Source: an uncultured Candidatus Saccharibacteria bacterium
GTDB lineage: Bacteria > Patescibacteriota > Minisyncoccia > Phycocordibacterales > WO2-35-19
Assembly (NCBI GenBank): GCA_964440955.1
Contig: CAYTTP010000001.1
Span: 14,388 to 78,387 of the forward strand
Reading direction: 5' to 3'
DNA length: 64,000 bases
Shown: in pieces, positions 6,455 to 59,739 of the stretch
Position numbering within the stretch: position 1 is the stretch's first letter
Layout of the letters: each line of letters opens with the position of its first letter
Notes under the pieces: model-generated
What the model was told of the DNA's origin: nothing
Databases searched by the model: none
What the model saw: only the letters and a program-made list of their open reading frames with translations
Position numbers and translations under genes: made by a program

Positions 6455-7342
6455 CTACTGGGCCTTCTCCACGCGTTTCCACATGGGGACGTAGTGAACG
6501 TCCGGATCAGCAACGTCGAGTTCGGGGTGGGGCTTCACGGTCCACACACCAGGTTTGCAGTAGATCGAAAGCTCGGTAGAGCCTTTACCTACATTCACCC
6601 GGATAGAACCGCAGCCTTCGCGTGTATACCCCTTCCGTTCCGCTTCTCTCTCGCCGTTGCCTTGAAAGACATTCAGCTTGAAATGTTCGGGACGAGCGAA
6701 GGAGAACTTGAACTCCTGCGACTTGGTCACGATCAATCCGGTTTTGTTTTCCAGATTGAACAATACGACCGAGTTCACTTCAGAGACAAGTGTGTTCGCA
6801 CGAGTTTGGCCGAAAAGCGCGTTGAACGCTTTCACACCATCACCCGCTTTCCACTCGAAGTTGTGGTCGTGAGATTCAATCGCTTGAACCTGCGCGACTA
6901 CCGGATATTCAGCGAGTAGCTTGGATTCGCGCTCGATCTTCTTGTCGATGTCGAGCACGCGCTCACCGGTTTTCCGAAGTAAGTTCCGTAATTTACGGAA
7001 TCCTTCGGCCTCAGCGAACATATTGATGGCGAGATGCGAGAAGCTCGGCATGATGCGTTCGGTGTTGCCGAACCCACCTTCAAGCCACTTGCATTCAATT
7101 TCAGCGGCAGCGAGAGCGTTGATCACATCTTCTCCAAAAACTGGAAAGTGGTGATCGGATTCGTGACAGTCGCCGACAATGATGACCTTGGTTTTTCCAG
7201 TGGCTTTCACCTCCTGGATCAACAGGTTCATGTCTACGACGGCCGGGCAGAAATTGCCGGCGATAACGACGCAATCCTCGGCTACCTTCATGTCCAACTC
7301 GTAGCCATTCTTCGGGTCCTGGGTGAACGTAACTTTCTTCAT
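6455..7342 (-). CDS. hypothetical protein; possibly a metal-dependent hydrolase (GDCHESDHH motif). GC-rich and likely horizontally acquired
   Basis: 295 aa ORF preceded by a GGAGA SD. GC content is well above the surrounding sequence. I cannot place it in a family confidently. Confidence 0.5.
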   Translation of the reverse strand: MKKVTFTQDPKNGYELDMKVAEDCVVIAGNFCPAVVDMNLLIQEVKATGKTKVIIVGDCHESDHHFPVFGEDVINALAAAEIECKWLEGGFGNTERIMPSFSHLAINMFAEAEGFRKLRNLLRKTGERVLDIDKKIERESKLLAEYPVVAQVQAIESHDHNFEWKAGDGVKAFNALFGQTRANTLVSEVNSVVLFNLENKTGLIVTKSQEFKFSFARPEHFKLNVFQGNGEREAERKGYTREGCGSIRVNVGKGSTELSIYCKPGVWTVKPHPELDVADPDVHYVPMWKRVEKAQ

Positions 7343-7541: not shown

Positions 7542-8633
7542 CTACAACTCCCCCAGTGCTCGGAGGGCACAGCCAACGGCGACTGTAAATTCGGGGCCAG
7601 TCACTTTCAAAACATTTTCCAAGAAAGCAGGAGTTTCTACTTTTTCAAATGGGTTACCTGACACCACTTCAACTTTAAAATTAGAGGCCGCGAGTTCACG
7701 TAAGCCCCGCAAAGCTGACCCGCCACCAGTCAAAAATACCGAGCGAATATTTTCGTTACGCTTTTTTTGAAAAGTAAATAGAAAACGATTGGCTTCAGCA
7801 AATATCTCGGCGGCAATCACACTTGCTGCTTCGCTCAAATCAACCCCTTCAGGTGTTCGCCCCATGCCGATGTTTCGCTTCAATACTTCTGCTTCTTCAG
7901 TAGAGACATTCAAAAGCCGTGCAATATTGGCTGTAATATCTTGCGAGCCTCGGTTTACCGTATGGGAATGGTGAACAAGCCCACGCTCGACAATATAGAG
8001 TTTGGTAGTTGAAGCCCCCATGTCAAAAATCATAAGCGGTCCCTTTACTCCCTCAAGCACTGCTCTCATCGAACTAAAAACCTCGATCTCAAAAAATTTG
8101 GCGTCGATACCAGTTTTGTCCACTATTTCTTTGTATTGATTGATGATGTTGTTGTGGATAGCAACAAGAAGGACATCGAGTGTTTTGGGCTTCATTTCAC
8201 TGTCATCATCAGACTCTATTTTAGGTACGATTGACCAATCAAGAGTCACATCAGAAATCGGCACGGGGATATATTTTCGCGCTTCAATCGGCACTAGGCT
8301 TGCAAGCTCTTTCTCGGTCATTTTTGGTACTTCTATAACCGACATCAAACTCGCTCTGAAAGGTATGGCGAGTCCGGCAATATGAGTACTTAATCCAACC
8401 TCTTTTTCTGCTAGCAAATCACCTATCGCTTGAATTATTTTTTCTGTCGGCAAATTGGTCGACTGACCAACCGACACCTCAGCATAAGGTCCGAGCGAAA
8501 GCTCCCCATAAGTATTGAGGATGGCTTTGTCCCCTTTCTTTTCGAGTTGCACCACTTTGATTGAAGATGAACCTATGTCTATACCCAAAGCGGAAACACT
8601 TTTCTTTTTGAAGATGTCCGAAAGAAAACTCAT
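7542..8633 (-). CDS. pilM: type IV pilus assembly ATPase-like protein PilM (actin fold)
   Basis: 363 aa. The N-terminal GIDIGSSSIKVVQL and the two actin-like (ASKHA) half-domains are typical of PilM and FtsA. Confidence 0.75.
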   Translation of the reverse strand: MSFLSDIFKKKSVSALGIDIGSSSIKVVQLEKKGDKAILNTYGELSLGPYAEVSVGQSTNLPTEKIIQAIGDLLAEKEVGLSTHIAGLAIPFRASLMSVIEVPKMTEKELASLVPIEARKYIPVPISDVTLDWSIVPKIESDDDSEMKPKTLDVLLVAIHNNIINQYKEIVDKTGIDAKFFEIEVFSSMRAVLEGVKGPLMIFDMGASTTKLYIVERGLVHHSHTVNRGSQDITANIARLLNVSTEEAEVLKRNIGMGRTPEGVDLSEAASVIAAEIFAEANRFLFTFQKKRNENIRSVFLTGGGSALRGLRELAASNFKVEVVSGNPFEKVETPAFLENVLKVTGPEFTVAVGCALRALGEL

Positions 8634-52626: not shown

Positions 52627-52704
52627 TGTTTTTCGAGGCGATTTTTCCCTTCGACAGGCTCAGGGTAAAGAGCCTAAAAAGAAGTGAAATCTACCAAGAT
52701 ATTG

Positions 52705-52926
52705 TTACCAAGATGATTTCTTAACTCCCGGTATTCTACCGGTATTTGCAAGCTCCCTGAAGCATATACGACAGAGACCAAAGTCACCCATATATGCTCT
52801 CGATCGGCCACATTTGAAACAGCGTCGAACGATCCGAGTGCTGAATTTCGGCTTCTTTTGTGATCTTGCGATTACTGAAGTTTTTGCCATTTCTATTAAA
52901 TAACCCCGTATAAAAGGGGCTTCCAT
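52705..52926 (-). CDS. rpsZ: 30S ribosomal protein S14 type Z (zinc-binding)
   Basis: 73 aa with CFKCGRS…CRIC, a CxxC…CxxC arrangement. Confidence 0.8.
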
Positions 52927-52985
52927 ACATTATCAAAAGACTAAAAAATAGTCAAACTCTTGGGAAAGATAGATCGGCGACAGCA

Positions 52986-53333
52986 ATGGTATTGCAACAT
53001 ATCACTAAAACGTGGTATAAATTTGGCGGAAAGGAAGAAAAAATGCGGGAATTTCTCACCACGCCAGATACCCAGACAACGCCAGACCGTGGACTAAAAT
53101 GCCTGGAGGGATTGAACTTCGTCTTCACCTGCAACGGCCGAGACGGGAAATCAAACACCCTCACAGGCTCCATCACTGAGGCGCACACTCATGATGGCGA
53201 GATGCGACTAAAAGTATCAGCAAGGTTATTTCGGGGAGAGGAAGTAGATTTCTTAGCCTTCAAAGAAGAAGGCTATTGGGTGGTGAAGACGACGCACAGC
53301 ACCATACCAGGTTATTTCAAAATCGTCCCCTAG
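52986..53333 (+). CDS. hypothetical protein (GC-rich)
   Basis: 115 aa ORF; an alternative start is MREFL at 53042. It is followed by a terminator. Confidence 0.35.
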   Translation: MVLQHITKTWYKFGGKEEKMREFLTTPDTQTTPDRGLKCLEGLNFVFTCNGRDGKSNTLTGSITEAHTHDGEMRLKVSARLFRGEEVDFLAFKEEGYWVVKTTHSTIPGYFKIVP

Positions 53334-53356
53334 CTCGCCCACCACTACCACCTCCC

Positions 53357-53386
53357 AGGCCGCCTTCGCGGCCTTTTATTTTTTAA
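53357..53386 (+). terminator. hairpin terminator (aggccgcc ttc gcggcct plus T run)
   Basis: GC stem followed by TTTTATTTTTT. Confidence 0.6.
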
Positions 53387-53397
53387 GTTTTAAAAAA

Positions 53398-53883
53398 CTA
53401 TTGGATATTTCTAGCCTTATCATACAGATCAAAAATAATATCTACCGTATATGAACGGTTTTGAGGCAATTCATCTCTTTTAAACCAACCGGCTTCCAAT
53501 ACTTCAAAACCATCGACTTCAAATTTTCTACTATCAGCTTGGGCCAAATACACATATACCGTATCTTTTTTATACTCCCTCGTATTTAGAAAACTTCCTA
53601 TTGATTGAATATTGTTAGCGGCAACCCCAGCCTCTTCTTTTAGTTCTCTTGCTGCCGCCCGCTCTGGACTCTCCCCGCGTTTTATCCCACCGCCGGGCAC
53701 TGTCCAACACTTATGTCCATAACTTATCCGCACCAACAAAAATTCTCCATGAGACTCTACCAAACATTTCACCCCGCTCGTGTGAGGGCGAAATACAAAG
53801 TAGTATAAAGTTCTCAAATAATCGGCGATTTTTAATATATACATATTTGAGTATTTTAATACTAAAATTATAAAACCTTGCAA
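53398..53883 (-). CDS. NUDIX hydrolase
   Basis: Nudix box GGGIKRGESPERAAARELKEEAGV. Confidence 0.75.
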   Translation of the reverse strand: MQGFIILVLKYSNMYILKIADYLRTLYYFVFRPHTSGVKCLVESHGEFLLVRISYGHKCWTVPGGGIKRGESPERAAARELKEEAGVAANNIQSIGSFLNTREYKKDTVYVYLAQADSRKFEVDGFEVLEAGWFKRDELPQNRSYTVDIIFDLYDKARNIQ

Positions 53884-53995
53884 TATTAATCAAATAAAAA
53901 GACTAGTCTACCACAAGGCCAGCCCACTAGAACGGGCTGGCCTTAGACTTTTAAAAACATTGAATTCGTGTAGAATGATCAATATTGATCAGATA

Positions 53996-54128
53996 ATAAG
54001 GAAGGGTGTCAGAGTGTTGATTTCCGAGCCTACGCAGGAAATCAAAGCCGGACCGAGCGTAGGCGAGGGAGGCGGGGTCGCGAGATTTTTCTAGCCAGAA
54101 AAATACTTGTGACCTAATGTGCACCTCG
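53996..54128 (+). repeat. degenerate partial duplicate of tRNA-Ser (5' 17 nt, then about 94 nt containing a GC-rich repeat-family fragment, then a D/anticodon-like segment)
   Basis: ataaggaagggtgtcagagtg is shared with the real tRNA at 54163-54183. gtgacctaatgtgcacct echoes tRNA positions 17-33. gagcgtaggcgagggaggcggggtcgcg resembles the repeat-family tail. Confidence 0.45.
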
Positions 54129-54168
54129 TTTATTTTGGAGGAGTAAGGTAAGGTATAAAAATAAATAA

Positions 54169-54257
54169 GGAAGGGTGTCAGAGTGGTCTAATGTGCATCT
54201 TTGCTAAAGATGTGTGCCCTTTAAAAGGCACCGAGGGTTCGAATCCCTCCCCTTCCG
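54169..54257 (+). tRNA. tRNA-Ser(GCU)
   Basis: GGAAGGG acceptor; anticodon arm CATCT-TTGCTAA-AGATG with GCT at positions 34-36; long variable arm GTGCC…GGCAC; T-arm GAGGG-TTCGAAT-CCCTC; acceptor 3' strand CCCTTCC; discriminator G. One mismatch in the D-stem. Confidence 0.75.
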
Positions 54258-54472
54258 CAAAAAAGCGAGAGCACGCAAGCTTTTTTGCGGAAGTCGCTCT
54301 ACAAGAGCGAGTTTCGCGTAGCGAAATGGGAGGGATTCGAAGGCCGGAAGAAATTTTTTAGCAAAAAAATTTCTGAGGCGGGGTCGCGCAAAAATTTAGC
54401 AAAATTTTATGTGTGACCGAATCCCTAGAAACACTCTCGAGTCGTGAAAATTTTTGGTTTTGGTTCCAACGC

Positions 54473-55255
54473 TTATTTTTTATTGAAGCGCTTAAAGTAG
54501 TCATCGATTTCGCCACGAAGTTCAATTCCAACTCGTTCAAAACAATCTAATAAATCTTTGTATGTGCCTTTACCACCAAGAAAATCCCAAAATTCATCAG
54601 CTACTTTAAGCTCATTATCCAAATCAAGCATTCCACGCATTGTCCATCGAGTGTAGGGTTCTGGTTCGTAAGGATTATATGGAATTGCGATAAATGTGTT
54701 TATATCGGCTTTTGGATTGTTCGCCAAAGTTACAGCGACCCATTCAAGTAGTGTTCGTTTAAATTCCTTAAATCCTCCAGCATTAGGTTTTGCTGTTTTT
54801 ATATCAAATAAATAATAACCGCCGTCTTTTGATTCAAACATTAAATCTACTTTGGTAGGTTTTGCTTTTATCATCTCACCAGACTGACAAACTTTTCTTA
54901 TTCGTTCAATTTCTTCTTTTTTGTTTGGTGATGATGTCGCTGTCGTTAGCCCGTCAATAATTTTCTGTATTTCTGCTTGTGCGCCAGTGCTTATACGATC
55001 TCCGGCAGTAGCTTGGCATGTAGCCATTTTAAAATTCTTTTGTGCTAAAGCTAAGCCAACCGGTTCAAAAATACTTGTTCCAAAATTAGTATTGAGCGAA
55101 TGGATAAATGAATAAAGTGCCAATCTATCCTTACCCAAAAGACGAGTATGGAATGGCATCGAAGCCGGTTCCGGTTTGTAATTTTGGAATTTGTTTCTGA
55201 GACTTGCTTTTAATACATCCTCAACATTCTTAACTTGTTCTTTTGATAGTGTCAT
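54473..55255 (-). CDS. type II restriction endonuclease (PD-(D/E)xK fold)
   Basis: 260 aa. The putative catalytic region is …MFESKDGGYYLFDIKTAK… It lies 4 nt downstream of a DNA methyltransferase gene. Confidence 0.6.
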   Translation of the reverse strand: MTLSKEQVKNVEDVLKASLRNKFQNYKPEPASMPFHTRLLGKDRLALYSFIHSLNTNFGTSIFEPVGLALAQKNFKMATCQATAGDRISTGAQAEIQKIIDGLTTATSSPNKKEEIERIRKVCQSGEMIKAKPTKVDLMFESKDGGYYLFDIKTAKPNAGGFKEFKRTLLEWVAVTLANNPKADINTFIAIPYNPYEPEPYTRWTMRGMLDLDNELKVADEFWDFLGGKGTYKDLLDCFERVGIELRGEIDDYFKRFNKK

Positions 55256-55259
55256 AAAA

Positions 55260-56834
55260 TTATACTGATTTAAAATGAAAAATTATTTCGGAATATGGAT
55301 TCCTGTCCCGTTCTGTTCGATTCAAAACAGGTCTTTTAAATTGATTCACAATCTTCATTCCAGATTTTTCAGCAATTTCTGGATAGAGATTGTATTTATC
55401 GTTTGCCACAAGGAAAATGTCATAATCATCTTTTAAGTATTTCTTACAATTATTTAGCACATCAGCTATTCCTTGGGCGTATGATCTACGTGCCTCCTGT
55501 CCTTGTCCTTTGTAAAGAGGACCAATTTCTAGATCGTCTTTTCTCTTAAAACCCAGCAAATCATAAGCATAGGCGTGTTGTTCGTGATAATCTATCTGTC
55601 CAACATATGGAGGCGAGCAAAATATACCCGAAATTTTTTGTTTTTTGAGAATCTTTGCAAACTCCGGATTTTGCTTTTCAACTTTTTCAAAAATATCCAC
55701 AGCTCTTGAATCACCAGCAATAGCCGAGTAATGGACTGGTTTTCGCAATCTTTCAAATTCCTTAATTCTTGAAACTGTATCGTAAGCGTAACGATTAAGC
55801 ATTGTTTTTATAGAGAACAACGGCTTGCAAATCTTTTTATGCTTATAACAATAGTATGTAGTTAGTTGAGGTTCTTTTAGAGTAGCAAGATCACTGTGTG
55901 TTGTAGCTCGGCATGACCTAATTGTTCGACTCAAAATCAGAGCTAAAATCTTTTTTGTTTTCACATCCTTCTCTTGCTTTATGGTGTTAAAGACATGATT
56001 AATTTCTTTTCTCACATTATCCATAAACCAAGTGTCTAAAAATGATTCAGTCTTGTCTTGTTTCAGTTTTATTGAATATTTTTTGAGTAATTTTTGATAT
56101 GTAGGCAAAAACTCCTTTTCTTTTTCTGAAGAAAACTTTTTTTCATCAAAATTTCCCTGATTTATTTTATATTTGAAATCTGAGCCGGGAAAATGTTTGT
56201 TATTAAATTTTGCCAATTCTGCCAACAACTCTGTTTCAAATTCTTGTATTCTGTTATCATGCTCAAAAGTATCTATTGCGGAGAGCATTTTTTTAATTGC
56301 TTTCTGTAAATAGTCGTGATCATAGTTTGTTGCCTTGCAACTCGCAATCATGCAATTAAACTCAGACACATCAATACCCACGGAATGGATACCCATTTCT
56401 AGTGACTGAATAATTGTTGTTCCTGAACCTAAAAAAGGATCGAGGACTATATCACCGGTTTTAAAATAAACTTCTTTTTTAAAATCATCAGTATGGGAAT
56501 CAATAAAATATTCAACCAGTTGCGGAATATATTTTCCTTTGTATGGATGTAATCTATGAACATGCTTCGTCGTATCTTTTTCCCTGAGATTATCAAAAGA
56601 CAACGCCCAGTTTAAGTCATCGCCAAGTTGTTTTTTCCAATCAATCTCTCGTTTACCTTTCCATGATTCGTAATACTTTTTCAAATCATTCAAATCAACA
56701 AGGGTTGATCCATTTTCTCCAAGTTTCTTAACCTTACCGTATTGAACAAGGTAAGAAATATTTGTTGGCGATACTTCTTTTTCAAGATAGTCCGTCGCCC
56801 ATTTTGATGCTTCGTGTATAGTTACTAATGACAT
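55260..56834 (-). CDS. DNA methyltransferase (amino-MTase with motif I DPFLGSGTT and motif IV SPPY; N6-adenine or N4-cytosine)
   Basis: 524 aa. FxGxG-type DPFLGSGTT lies near residue 130 and CSPPYVGQIDY near residue 415, an alpha-like motif order. Confidence 0.75.
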   Translation of the reverse strand: MSLVTIHEASKWATDYLEKEVSPTNISYLVQYGKVKKLGENGSTLVDLNDLKKYYESWKGKREIDWKKQLGDDLNWALSFDNLREKDTTKHVHRLHPYKGKYIPQLVEYFIDSHTDDFKKEVYFKTGDIVLDPFLGSGTTIIQSLEMGIHSVGIDVSEFNCMIASCKATNYDHDYLQKAIKKMLSAIDTFEHDNRIQEFETELLAELAKFNNKHFPGSDFKYKINQGNFDEKKFSSEKEKEFLPTYQKLLKKYSIKLKQDKTESFLDTWFMDNVRKEINHVFNTIKQEKDVKTKKILALILSRTIRSCRATTHSDLATLKEPQLTTYYCYKHKKICKPLFSIKTMLNRYAYDTVSRIKEFERLRKPVHYSAIAGDSRAVDIFEKVEKQNPEFAKILKKQKISGIFCSPPYVGQIDYHEQHAYAYDLLGFKRKDDLEIGPLYKGQGQEARRSYAQGIADVLNNCKKYLKDDYDIFLVANDKYNLYPEIAEKSGMKIVNQFKRPVLNRTERDRNPYSEIIFHFKSV

Positions 56835-56843
56835 AAGTTTATT

Positions 56844-57470
56844 TTATAATTCTTTTCTTAATACTCCTACGACCTTTCCTTGAATGACGACATTTGATTC
56901 GTAAAACGGCTTCATGGTTTGATTTGCTGGAACAAGTTTTACCCTATCTTTTTCCCTGTATATTTTTTTAAGTGTTACTTCGTTTCTATCTGGCATATAC
57001 GCAACTGCTTTTTCTCCATCTTCGATAGTTTGTTGATCGTGAACAATAACAATATCGCCATCCATAATTCCTTCCTCAATCATACTTAATCCAGAAACTT
57101 TGAGCGCATAATATTGAGAAGGACTACGAAGCATTGATCGTGGCACTTCAATCATTTCTTCGGTGCGTATTGCTTCAATGGGACCACCAGCAGAAATAAT
57201 TCCGAGAAGTGGTATATCGACAAGTGGTGATTTATAATCCTGTGGAGCAATGATCGATCGTTTCCTGCCTCTTTCCATTTTTAATAAACCTTTTTTCCAT
57301 AAAGCGTGAACATGTTGATGTATTGTCGGCACTGACACATCAAAATGCTTCGCTGTTTCGACTTGCGAAGGGGCATAACCATTCTCTCGTCGATAAGCAC
57401 GAATAAAATCCAAAACCTCGGCCTCACGCTTGGTTGGTTTATCTGTTGTAACACTTGACTCTTCTTTCAT
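56844..57470 (-). CDS. lexA: LexA repressor (S24 peptidase)
   Basis: 208 aa. The N-terminal LexA winged HTH (…EVLDFIRAYRRENGYAPSQVETAKHFDVSVPTIHQHVHALWKKGLL…), a cleavage-site region and the S24 Ser/Lys dyad region (VSGLSM…GDIVIV…K) are present. Confidence 0.85.
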   Translation of the reverse strand: MKEESSVTTDKPTKREAEVLDFIRAYRRENGYAPSQVETAKHFDVSVPTIHQHVHALWKKGLLKMERGRKRSIIAPQDYKSPLVDIPLLGIISAGGPIEAIRTEEMIEVPRSMLRSPSQYYALKVSGLSMIEEGIMDGDIVIVHDQQTIEDGEKAVAYMPDRNEVTLKKIYREKDRVKLVPANQTMKPFYESNVVIQGKVVGVLRKEL

Positions 57471-57475
57471 GAGTT

Positions 57476-57485
57476 TAGTATACTA
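57476..57485. promoter_or_regulatory. perfect 10-bp palindrome TAGTATACTA 6 nt upstream of the lexA start; candidate operator
   Basis: A self-complementary sequence overlapping the lexA ribosome-binding region, in the 91-bp divergent lexA/HNH intergenic region. Confidence 0.35.
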
Positions 57486-57561
57486 CCTAAAGATAACCTA
57501 AACAAGCACTGGTTATCCACAGAATTAAAGGTCGAAACAATAAGCTAAACAATTAACCATT

Positions 57562-57861
57562 ATGGCAAGAAATCGAAGTACAAAACGCGATGGAGCATCT
57601 TTTGATGAAGCAGTAATTGAAGCTGTTTGGAAAAAAGGAACTCCGGAATCATATGAAAGTTTTCGGAAAGATGTCTGCGGCGCTAGTATGCAACGTTCAA
57701 AATACGGAGAGACTGTACAATGGGGTTGGGAGATTGATCACATCAAACCAGTCGCCTTGGGTGGCTCAGACGATTTGAGCAATTTGCAACCGCTCCAGTG
57801 GGAAAATAATCGTGCGAAGAGCGATGAGTACCCACACAAAACATGTGCTGTCAGAAGCTAG
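57562..57861 (+). CDS. HNH endonuclease (99 aa, free-standing)
   Basis: HNH motif …WEIDHIKPVALGGSDDLSNLQPLQWENNRAK…. Confidence 0.75.
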   Translation: MARNRSTKRDGASFDEAVIEAVWKKGTPESYESFRKDVCGASMQRSKYGETVQWGWEIDHIKPVALGGSDDLSNLQPLQWENNRAKSDEYPHKTCAVRS

Positions 57862-57975
57862 GTGCTTGGAAAACGTGCTGATGTAAATAGAGCCTGCGTA
57901 CTTGATACGACACTCTGAACTTCAGCTACGATGGAACGGCACGCACAAAGGCGATTGGAAAGCACACCTTCCAAC

Positions 57976-58000
57976 AAAATCCCCTTACGGGGATTTTGTT
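57976..58000 (+). terminator. hairpin terminator after the HNH gene
   Basis: aaaatcccc ttac ggggatttt. Confidence 0.55.
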
Positions 58001-58717
58001 ATTGTGAATCTTATAGGGAGCCGTCCGCGTTAGCTGGCGAATTCGTGCGCGCATTGGGCGGGCGGGGCAAGCACATATAGATTTGCTTGTGCCTAGCACA
58101 ATCCGCTTTTTAGAGTTATCACAGGCTCAATCGAAGCCACAGAGCGAATACGAAGCAAACACCGAGCAGGCATCGTGAGCGAATGCGAACGGCCTATGCG
58201 AGGTGGTTGCGAAGTGTGAGCGTACTCTCGAACTATCACAAAACGCAGATACGGGGAGCGCCTCGCACCGACGCGAATGACGGAGGAAAGGACGGACAAA
58301 ATATCGCCACAATGCTAAAATATAAATACAAGTCCTTTCTGGAGGAATGAAGCGTCGGAATCAAAACCAAAAATTTCCTTTCCATTTTTTGTCGGCTCCC
58401 CCCACACCCCCCGCCGAAAATCTAAGAAAGGAAGGAAAATTTTTGGTTTTGTACCGCGACCGAAGGGAGCGGACGAGGCGCGCATTAGCATTTAGTCATT
58501 TGGATTCTGCTCGAAATACATTCGAACTTTGTCCAACAAACACCGCAAACGCAAACTGTCTGTCGCAGACAGAAACAGTTTTCAGTTTGCGGAAGGGAGA
58601 AAGTGCTTTGAATAGCACTTTCGTGAGGATTCGAAAGGCGGAGCGGGCCCCGCTTTAGCAAAAGCGGGAGCGAGCCAGGGTCGTGAAAATTTTTGAGCGA
58701 CGGCGAAAAAATTATTC

Positions 58718-58741
58718 ATGACCGAATCCCCTCTTCCGCCA
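58718..58741 (+). repeat. degenerate direct repeat of the tRNA-Ser 3' end (att-like)
   Basis: tgaccgaatcccctcttccgccag compared with the tRNA 3' end ggttcgaatccctccccttccgcaa. Flanking motifs (ttagcaaaa, gtcgtgaaaatttttg, ggattcgaa) are shared with 54330-54455. Confidence 0.5.
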
Positions 58742-58842
58742 GTATTTTTGAAAAACAATGCTCAAAATTCTTTTGTTTTGCGGTACATTTAAAAACTAAG
58801 AAGTGATAAAATAGGTGAGCCTCCAAAAGACCAAAAACAAAA

Positions 58843-59439
58843 ATGAAAGATAAAGAAATACCCACAAATCCAGATCAATTTTTCCCTTGGTTAAAGACAG
58901 AGAGCGAGAAACTTTGGGAAGACATTGAACTCAATAATACTATTTACGGATTTCAATTGCAGGCTGGAACAAAATGGCTCCCCGGTCTCAATGACGAGCA
59001 AATCGCAAACTATGAGAAAGACGTTGGATTTATTTTTCCTAAAGTCTTTAGAACATTCCTTAAATACATGAATGGTACTGATAAACAAACAATAAATGTA
59101 TATGGTGGTTCCGACAAACCACATACTTATGGTGTCGGTTACTATTCTTATCCAAGAGATATTCAAGCAGTCAAAGACATGATCACTTGGATTTTTGAAG
59201 AATACAAGATATCAGAAAAAGACTTAGAGAAACAAACCATTCCTCATGTGTTGCCAATCATATCGCACAGATTTATCGTGGCAGATAGGTGCGAAACAAA
59301 TCCGGTACTGTCAATGCATGGTACAGATACGATTTTATACGCTAATTCTTTGCAAGACTTTTTAATTAGCGATATTTTCGCCAATCATCAACGAGAGTCA
59401 GATTTACAAAATATAGAAGTGAAGTTTTGGTTGGATTAA
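58843..59439 (+). CDS. SMI1/KNR4 (SUKH-1) family protein, a putative immunity protein
   Basis: 198 aa. …FFPWLKTESEK… and …KWLPGLNDEQIANYEKDVGFIFPKVFRTFLKYMNGTD… follow the SUKH pattern (W, LP, Y, FL, NG). Confidence 0.6.
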   Translation: MKDKEIPTNPDQFFPWLKTESEKLWEDIELNNTIYGFQLQAGTKWLPGLNDEQIANYEKDVGFIFPKVFRTFLKYMNGTDKQTINVYGGSDKPHTYGVGYYSYPRDIQAVKDMITWIFEEYKISEKDLEKQTIPHVLPIISHRFIVADRCETNPVLSMHGTDTILYANSLQDFLISDIFANHQRESDLQNIEVKFWLD

Positions 59440-59459
59440 TCATCATTTATAATAAAAAT

Positions 59460-59687
59460 ATGAACAAACAACTTGTGGTTATCTTAATAGTTATTATCTT
59501 TATCCTCGGCGGGCTTTTGTATGTTTACAATAGCGAACCTACCACCTACCAAAACGAAGTGGCCTGCACTATGGATGCTATGCTTTGTCCCGATGGATCA
59601 TACGTAGGTAGACAGGGTCCAAACTGCGAATTCGCCCCTTGCCCAATACCAGAGGGAGCAATGATGGAAGACGGCACGATCGAATAG
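59460..59687 (+). CDS. small membrane-anchored Cys-rich protein
   Basis: MNKQLVVILIVIIFILGGLLYVY TM helix, then CTMDAMLCPDGSYVGRQGPNCEFAPCP. Confidence 0.4.
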   Translation: MNKQLVVILIVIIFILGGLLYVYNSEPTTYQNEVACTMDAMLCPDGSYVGRQGPNCEFAPCPIPEGAMMEDGTIE

Positions 59688-59739
59688 TTGGTATTACATA
59701 CAAGATTGCGCAATACTTCATGTACCGCATAATAAGGTC

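Follow-up and report, generated by a model that had tools for sequence, protein, structure and literature searches.

A tRNA-linked lexA and restriction-modification island in a Saccharibacteria genome, probably a recombinase-less member of a modular cassette family

The island at tRNA-Ser(GCU)

We describe an accessory island in a 64-kb stretch of DNA (64,000 nucleotides; hereafter the window) from an uncultured Candidatus Saccharibacteria bacterium (contig CAYTTP010000001.1). The island occupies positions 54259-58741 (4,483 nt), beginning immediately 3′ of an intact tRNA-Ser(GCU) gene and ending with a distal direct copy of that gene's 3′ end. It carries lexA, a type II restriction-modification (R-M) pair, an HNH endonuclease gene, and a GC-rich noncoding element. 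Its features are listed below, with IR_L and IR_R denoting the left and right inverted repeats.

54169-54258 (ARAGORN) or 54169-54257 (Rfam, 51.5 bits), + strand: intact tRNA-Ser(GCU), the proposed integration target; its 3′ end, ...CTTCCGCA, is the left border of the island
54259-54445, no strand: left junction debris, comprising a terminator-like hairpin on the tRNA 3′ end, an inverted T-arm/acceptor copy (54321-54344), and a truncated direct copy (54411-54428)
54446-54474, no strand: 29-nt remnant of IR_L, overlapping the endonuclease stop codon; its outer ~170 nt are gone
54473-55255, − strand: TdeIII-family type II restriction endonuclease (R), 260 amino acids (aa) (PF09520, E = 8.5e-96; PADLOC REase_II)
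55260-56834, − strand: type II N4/N6 DNA methyltransferase (M), 524 aa (PF01555; PADLOC MTase_II, 775 bits, full length)
56844-57470, − strand: lexA, 208 aa (TIGR00498, 167 bits against a cutoff of 110.95; PF01726 and PF00717)
57471-57561, no strand: divergent control region with a palindromic −10 box, AGTATACT (57477-57484), a candidate operator (57492-57517), and the lexA −35 box (57500-57505)
57562-57861, + strand: HNH endonuclease, 99 aa, in a variable effector slot (PF01844, 28.6 bits against a cutoff of 21.4)
58016-58549, + strand: conserved structured noncoding element with helices P1 (58144-58221), P2 (58268-58358), P3 (58362-58451), and P4 (58258-58265 with 58474-58481)
58550-58741, + strand: right junction mini-unit, an inverted copy of the tRNA 3′ end split by a hairpin (58589-58635) and followed by a direct repeat (58719-58741) that forms the right border

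The lexA, methyltransferase, and endonuclease genes are separated by gaps of only 9 and 4 nt, and the adjacent methyltransferase and endonuclease, each with its family signature, identify a type II R-M system. The HNH gene is divergent from lexA and is followed by ~0.98 kb without a conserved open reading frame (ORF). GC content is 0.48-0.51 in the stretch at 57.9-58.8 kb, compared with 0.35 in the R-M-lexA block and 0.416 in the 64-kb window. An original prediction, made from the sequence before any database search, had proposed a tRNA-Ser(GCU) at 54169-54257, the three minus-strand genes with their 9- and 4-nt gaps, the divergent HNH gene, and a GC-rich stretch free of ORFs. ARAGORN and Rfam agree on the tRNA; the coordinates and families of the three genes match; the HNH protein scores above the PF01844 cutoff; and the GC-rich stretch has neither a conserved ORF nor a Pfam match.

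We find that the island is absent from the corresponding locus of the nearest relatives. Comparison sequences are metagenome contigs throughout, many of them cut at repeats, and the relatives of the host are distant: the closest non-self RecG protein is 72% identical and those of the nearest relatives ~70%, which leaves the host without a close relative in the databases. Two of these relatives (L169 and L170) share the backbone of the window, namely L6-S8-S14, tRNA-Ser(GCU), a variable stretch, an 86-aa ORF with RecG, and tRNA-Ile(UAU). At this syntenic locus, neither has a homologue of lexA, the methyltransferase, the endonuclease, or HNH, nor of the SUKH and NUDIX genes that flank the island in the window.

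The island genes instead recur in other hosts and at other tRNA genes. Three other Patescibacteria (L007-L009) encode M and R proteins with 98-99% identity to those of the island. A 4-kb cassette, 91% identical in nucleotide sequence, lies at tRNA-Ser(CGA) among other flanking genes in L003. In further loci the lexA-M-R trio adjoins tRNA-Ser(GCU), tRNA-Ser(GGA), or tRNA-Asn genes, and sister cassettes with other cargo are found at tRNA-Arg or tRNA-Leu. In L008, a 5.1-kb block with lexA-M-R lies between direct repeats of the tRNA 3′ end that match at 20/24 positions. Judged from synteny, sequence identity, and the low GC content of the R-M-lexA block, 54259-58741 is a foreign accessory island at tRNA-Ser(GCU).

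Copies of the tRNA 3′ end mark the borders of the island. Within the 64 kb, the pattern CGAATCCC-N3-8-TTCCGC, spanning the T-arm and the acceptor strand, has exactly two occurrences, both on the + strand, where none is expected by chance. One copy lies within the tRNA and the other at 58723-58739. The patterns of the right mini-unit are each unique in the window (also none expected by chance), with a related piece in L041, and L003 has a comparable ~190-nt mini-unit between tRNA and cassette. The original prediction had proposed that degenerate copies of the tRNA-Ser 3′ end bracket the block, with the caveat that they might represent only the generic T-loop motif. The direct repeat at 58719-58741 and the truncated copy at 54411-54428 bear out the proposal; and the distal copy also holds the acceptor-specific TTCCGC, which exceeds a generic T-loop motif. 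These repeats, the break in synteny against L169 and L170 (a comparison with related genomes that had been proposed as a check), and the presence of the same cassette at other tRNAs support the earlier reading of site-specific recombination at the tRNA 3′ end.

A cassette family with serine recombinases

The noncoding element at 58016-58549 is conserved with sharp borders in L003, L004, L006, L007, and L009. A 27-nt core motif of the element matches at least 120 metagenome contigs and no viral contigs; among the matches listed, about half belong to the element family and the others to a ~105-nt repeat unrelated to it. Most family loci carry the final 120-270 nt of the element a second time, as an inverted copy beyond 2-7 kb of cargo. 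These inverted arms are 95-100% identical within a locus and ~80-90% identical between loci. In the window, IR_R corresponds to the last ~200 nt of the element (58347-58549), ending ...ACACCGCA. Cargo consists mainly of R-M genes, including N4/N6 methyltransferases, TdeIII-type endonucleases, LexA-methyltransferase fusions, and a RadC-Dcm fusion, together with a Bro-N protein. The RadC-Dcm fusion is a 557-aa ORF in L139 that joins a RadC-like JAB domain to a C-5 cytosine methyltransferase.

At least 10 sister loci encode a large serine recombinase of ~470 aa with Resolvase, Recombinase, and Zn_ribbon_recom domains. Its gene lies between the tRNA and IR_L in eight of them (L009, L048, L052, L083, L089, L093, L120, and L144). 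In L080 and L121 it lies just outside IR_L, with no tRNA within the available sequence, and in L073 it lies on the IR_R side. Where contigs continue past IR_L, the recombinase gene usually comes next; it points to a tRNA gene on the strand of the element, namely tRNA-Ser in L009, L048, L083, and L093 and tRNA-Arg in L052. It is also enclosed in inverted repeats of its own, which are 120-147 nt long and 99-100% identical, even where the recombinase proteins are only 39-58% identical. These pairs lie at 13193-13312/14715-14834 in L009, 5698-5831/7320-7453 in L083, 2042-2188/3651-3797 in L052, and 5653-5783/7199-7329 in L080. In both loci where this was located (L009 and L083), the inverted repeat overlaps the 3′ end of the recombinase gene. 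In L009, a core, CCGCCAAAATT, containing the last bases of the tRNA, is found at three junctions: between tRNA and recombinase module, between recombinase and cargo modules, and between cargo module and host.

The window has no such gene: a tblastn search of the 64 kb with a sister serine recombinase found no homologue. Recombinase is likewise absent from L003, L006, and L119. Its absence here and presence in sister loci indicate that the window copy is a recombinase-less derivative, in line with the proposal of the original prediction that an integrase had been lost. That prediction had also proposed a search for integrase remnants within 57.9-58.8 kb, a stretch that is instead occupied by the conserved structured element. 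We rejected an integrase pseudogene there, given shifting frames, no Pfam match, and no tblastn match to the sister recombinase.

The left inverted repeat of the window is also truncated. A 27-nt segment of the IR_L remnant is 93% complementary to 58350-58376. At the same position relatives have an IR_L of 120-270 nt, and the window keeps 29 of ~200 nt. The junction reads GTCGTGAAAATTTTTG|GTTTTGG at 54441-54463, and one GAAAATTTTTG word is still present at 58680-58695; a 16-nt exact repeat links 54441 and 58680. A deletion between two GAAAATTTTTG words would probably account for the missing recombinase module and for the truncation of IR_L.

The LexA-linked trio and the structured element

The lexA gene, the 524-aa methyltransferase, and the 260-aa endonuclease occur together in 16/16 contexts of this LexA clade (73-95% identity), and the chromosomal neighborhoods of these 16 contexts are unrelated to each other. 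The LexA protein has a winged-helix DNA-binding domain and an S24 peptidase domain. Aligned to Escherichia coli LexA, it retains SAGGP (with the Ala-Gly site), SGLSM, and TLKK (with the Ser/Lys dyad) at the expected positions. In sister cassettes, LexA is fused to Eco57I/TaqI-type methyltransferases: an 892-aa ORF in L119 and an 834-aa ORF in L052, both inside repeat-bounded cassettes, join N-terminal LexA (DNA-binding and S24 peptidase domains) to Eco57I/N6_Mtase/TaqI_C. From these contexts, lexA is best read as mobile cargo in a fixed trio with M and R, not as a housekeeping gene caught in an island. A literature search with most subscription journals outside its reach returned nothing specific on LexA-linked R-M trios or on Patescibacteria serine-recombinase cassettes.

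The control region suggests how the trio might be regulated. A candidate operator, GATAACC-N12-GGTTATC, overlaps the lexA promoter (TTGTTT-17-TATACT), and the sequence upstream of lexA is conserved over ~55 nt in all 16 relatives. The palindrome is present in a single copy in the window and in each locus, always upstream of lexA; that is, across ~1.3 Mb of loci this candidate LexA box is seen only at its own promoter. On the + strand, a promoter-like TTGACT-18-TATACT uses the same −10 box, AGTATACT. Since this box is palindromic and common to both promoters, one operator could repress both units. The divergent slot upstream of lexA is variable: it holds HNH in the window and in L003, and TIR-domain proteins, a KAP NTPase, a predicted nuclease, DUF4145, and others elsewhere.

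The trio is probably transcribed from the operator-overlapped promoter, beside a divergent promoter for a swappable effector, which is HNH in the window. In the likely scheme, LexA would keep the restriction genes and the effector at low expression. DNA damage, whether from phage attack or from self-restriction, would activate RecA and induce self-cleavage of LexA, derepressing both transcription units.

Restriction-site avoidance was uninformative as a pointer to the specificity of the R-M system: GGNCC, GANTC, and similar sites, counted across the window, gave no clue. We also rejected an assignment of the HNH protein to IscB, for which NCBIfam gave only 22 bits against a cutoff of 175, taken as generic HNH similarity. 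Between the HNH gene and the conserved element lies a perfect hairpin, AAAATCCCC-TTAC-GGGGATTTT (57976-57997), which is probably the HNH terminator; its matches to CRISPR repeats in Rfam are subthreshold and at chance level.

The element itself has a strand-specific secondary structure supported by covariation. P1 is a hairpin with an invariant loop, GAGCGAAUGCGA, at 58177-58188, and P4 is a long-range helix whose halves are 210 nt apart. A consensus structure was derived from a MAFFT alignment of 26 family members. In this alignment, 96.7% of cells are paired and 18 pairs have changes on both sides, a level reached in 0/500 shuffles and compared with ~40% in slid controls, although the structure was derived from the same, related sequences on which it is tested. 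The alifold energy is −71 kcal/mol on the + strand versus −42 kcal/mol on the reverse complement, and the single-sequence fold z-score is −4.05 versus −1.87. Changes on a single side of a helix are more often of G-U type (50) than of A-C type (22). A divergent subfamily swaps several adjacent P1 base pairs compensatorily. A covariance model of P1 detected one more, diverged copy beside the trio in L166 and none in eight other trio loci. The absence of the element from most trio loci scanned with this model indicates that element and trio are separable modules.

We find no sign that the element encodes a protein or belongs to a known RNA family. Six-frame comparison among homologues gives shifting frames and stops, and eight ORF fragments of the GC-rich stretch have no Pfam match. 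Rfam 15 gave no match at gathering score to 57862-58842 and, with E up to 10, only chance-level ones; for six sister loci it returned only tRNAs and chance matches. Nor does the element match the phage, plasmid, and viral collections searched. An omega-RNA reading was dropped, given the unrelated genes in the HNH slot at other loci.

The ~105-nt repeat recovered with the core motif belongs to GC-rich genomes and was set aside as a separate family, having only one hairpin loop and its closing stem in common with the element. This two-hairpin repeat occurs in several copies per contig and in both orientations (L051, L053, L055, L056, L064, L065, L094, L096, and others; for example, L094 1805-1831 and 9829-9855). 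It is not in Rfam, and the part it has in common with the element is the GAGCGAAUGCGA loop with that stem.

Interpretation and relation to known mobile elements

We conclude that 54259-58741 is probably a decayed, recombinase-less copy of a modular mobile defense cassette that is common in Patescibacteria. Complete copies consist, in order, of a tRNA, a recombinase gene in its own repeats, IR_L, 2-7 kb of variable cargo, a structured segment of ~340 nt, and IR_R. Such cassettes are most likely inserted at the tRNA 3′ end by the recombinase. Each insertion would restore the tRNA, so that further modules can stack at the same site. The element sits at the 3′ terminus of the proposed effector-side transcription unit, and its final third forms the recombination and repeat arm. 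We favor a model in which it acts in cis as the end of the cassette, as terminator, insulator, and recombination arm, and is also made as RNA. The window cassette could now move only with a recombinase supplied in trans. By analogy, the stacking and decay of modules most likely resemble those of staphylococcal cassette chromosome (SCC) and pseudo-SCC elements.

Several observations weigh against this interpretation. For the window cassette itself, no recombinase, excised circle, or empty site was seen. The core common to both window borders is short, only CCGCA plus an A-run, and the action of the recombinase at these sites is deduced from gene position and common cores. In about half of the lexA-M-R loci, neither the structured element nor a nearby recombinase is present, so the trio must also move or persist in other ways. 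The trio is itself mosaic: between the window and L007/L009, nucleotide identity is 93-99% for M and R and 63-81% for lexA, which is thus the more diverged. Serine integrases are not known to need long perfect inverted repeats, which are unexplained here. Finally, the structure of the element could act in single-stranded DNA instead of RNA.

This last point leads to an alternative in which the element acts only as DNA, providing recombination arms, protein sites, and a terminator, with its apparent structure reflecting palindromic binding sites. The last ~200 nt of the element are indeed duplicated as DNA in inverted orientation, the element ends at the recombination core, and no promoter of its own was found. 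However, its 5′ 340 nt are single-copy and lie outside the repeat, yet hold the most conserved hairpin. Helices are preserved by G-U-type over mirror A-C-type changes (50 versus 22), the reverse strand folds much worse, and the long-range P4 is not predicted by protein sites. We consider a purely DNA-acting element doubtful. We consider it improbable, too, that the repeat-bounded cargo and recombinase segments are invertible switches for phase variation, with a recombinase that acts mainly as an invertase like Hin/Gin, instead of or besides integration. Repeat pairs that are far more alike within a locus (95-100%) than between loci (only ~80-90%), recombinase genes inside their own repeat pair even in diverged family members, and the many contigs that end in repeats at both ends would fit such switches. 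Yet assemblers break contigs at repeats with or without inversion, and the Recombinase and zinc-ribbon domains mark the proteins as large serine recombinases, a type characteristic of integrases and transposases rather than of small invertases. Inversion alone is also insufficient, since the same cassette at different tRNAs and the direct repeats of tRNA ends need insertion, and no switch can operate in the window, where one repeat is cut to 29 nt.

Two further alternatives concern the origin of the block. LexA might be the vertically inherited SOS repressor of the host, with only M, R, and the effector exchanged by homologous recombination, which would make the locus a hot spot and not an island. 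The protein does pass the LexA equivalog cutoff, and the far greater divergence of lexA than of M-R between loci is expected if M-R were swapped in. Against this, lexA lies inside the repeat-bounded cassette in L003, L006, L007, L009, and L041; the chromosomal neighborhood is different in every genome; and the syntenic site in L169 and L170 is without lexA. Moreover, the operator is found only at its own promoter in ~1.3 Mb of loci, and sister cassettes fuse LexA domains directly to methyltransferases. A host lexA is therefore quite improbable. Insertion at a tRNA 3′ end with direct repeats is classic for tyrosine integrases and could suggest a prophage remnant or a tyrosine-integrase island, a reading to which we give almost no weight: the window block and all related loci are without phage genes or a tyrosine recombinase, searches of phage, plasmid, and viral collections with the element gave no match, and relatives carry serine recombinases instead. 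An integron is likewise not indicated, with no tyrosine recombinase and with boundaries formed by inverted repeat pairs of 120-270 nt and not by single attC sites.

More tentatively, and on balance unlikely in our view, the element, as structured RNA or a folded single strand, could represent a new class and be a working part of an undescribed serine-recombinase cassette family, for example controlling recombination direction, module exchange, or cassette expression. Under the same proposal, the cassette would provide a two-tier, damage-triggered defense in which restriction makes the signal and LexA cleavage frees a toxic effector.

Among known elements, the cassettes resemble SCC elements in having variable cargo that includes R-M genes and large serine recombinases, which insert SCC, and probably the present cassettes, at the 3′ end of one conserved gene. 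Both also have short direct repeats and inverted repeats at their ends; SCC elements stack in tandem, as is proposed here, and ccr-less SCC copies are common and can be mobilized in trans. The likeness described is one of layout. The cassettes described here use a tRNA 3′ end, mostly that of tRNA-Ser, and not rlmH/orfX; they have one recombinase and not a CcrA/CcrB pair; their inverted repeats are very long (120-270 nt), perfect, and placed around both recombinase and cargo; and they have a conserved structured element of ~0.5 kb and a Patescibacteria host. The island also resembles cis-mobilizable elements (CIMEs) and integrative mobilizable elements, which have att-type direct repeats, lack recombination genes of their own, and accrete or decay at a hot spot. 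Classical CIMEs, however, depend on the tyrosine integrases and conjugation of integrative and conjugative elements, whereas the island has no linked conjugation genes.

The trio is comparable to type II R-M systems with a C protein, such as PvuII and EcoRV, in which a regulator encoded in the operon controls M and R expression by way of a palindromic operator that it binds at its own promoter. Here the regulator is a full LexA (winged helix and S24 autopeptidase) and not a small Xre-type C protein, so control could respond to RecA and DNA damage. It is also the first gene of the lexA-M-R operon and is fused to the methyltransferase in sister cassettes. SetR of SXT and lambdoid CI are likewise autocleaving S24 repressors that tie the genes of mobile elements to the SOS signal; the candidate target genes here are the R-M pair and a swappable effector, and not transfer or lysis functions. 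The element is similar to HEARO/omega RNA, GOLLD, ROOL, OLE, and group I/II introns in being long, GC-rich, structured, and noncoding within an AT-rich genome, beside mobile or defense genes; it differs from these large RNAs in matching no Rfam 15 family, even at E up to 10. The presence of other genes in the slot at other loci makes its HNH neighbor incidental.

Patescibacteria have tiny genomes and are often called poor in defense systems and mobile elements. One tRNA-linked locus here opens onto a widespread modular cassette system in this group, a cassette family that is apparently undescribed. R-M and other defense genes move between distant lineages, as seen in M and R proteins that are 98-99% identical where core proteins are ~70% identical. 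The permanent coupling or fusion of LexA to R-M appears to be new and would link restriction to a DNA-damage signal. Other features that appear to be new are the variable effector slot under the same candidate operator and the association of large serine recombinases with a conserved structured element and with long perfect inverted repeats. Enzymes of this recombinase class are valued tools for genome engineering, so natural tRNA-targeting ones with defined sites are of practical interest as well.

Upstream of the tRNA lies one further feature, outside the island:

53995-54168, + strand: partial 5′ duplicate of tRNA-Ser, consisting of 22 nt exact, a hairpin-bearing insert, and a D-arm-like piece

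This duplicate had been read as part of the repeated integration at the site. It is real: the exact 22-nt copy of the tRNA 5′ end (53995-54016) is reached in 0/100 shuffles. It is not, however, a scar of the island. The island-free L169 (70% RecG identity) has the same duplicate with an inserted hairpin, TTGATTTCCGAGCCTACGCAGGAAATCAA, at 8285-8450, so the duplicate is older than the island and we ruled out an origin by its integration. In both the window and L169, a few bases that precede the tRNA and are specific to that genome are also found in the duplicate, which suggests gene conversion or a function of the duplicate. A small GC-rich repeat, GAGGCGGGGTCGCG...TTTTTCTAGCCAGAAAAATA, lies within it at 54063-54113; the first 14 nt have a second copy at 54375-54388, and the repeat recurs in unrelated Patescibacteria loci (L025 81-121, L026 138-180, and L038 754-821).

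The wider interval from S14 to RecG (52627-59739 in the window) is a variable hot spot of this lineage. It is 7.1 kb long in the window, against 3.5 kb for L170 and 8.2 kb for L169, and its genes are unrelated among the three. A NUDIX gene (53398-53883) and a low-GC SUKH-1 immunity-type gene (58843-59439), which flank the island, are also absent from L169 and L170. L169 has a second tRNA-Ser-like gene, with its anticodon called ACT, ~0.9 kb downstream of its tRNA-Ser(GCU) (7185-7272 and 8195-8284), and a 161-aa ORF between the two. This second gene may mark another insertion at a like site.

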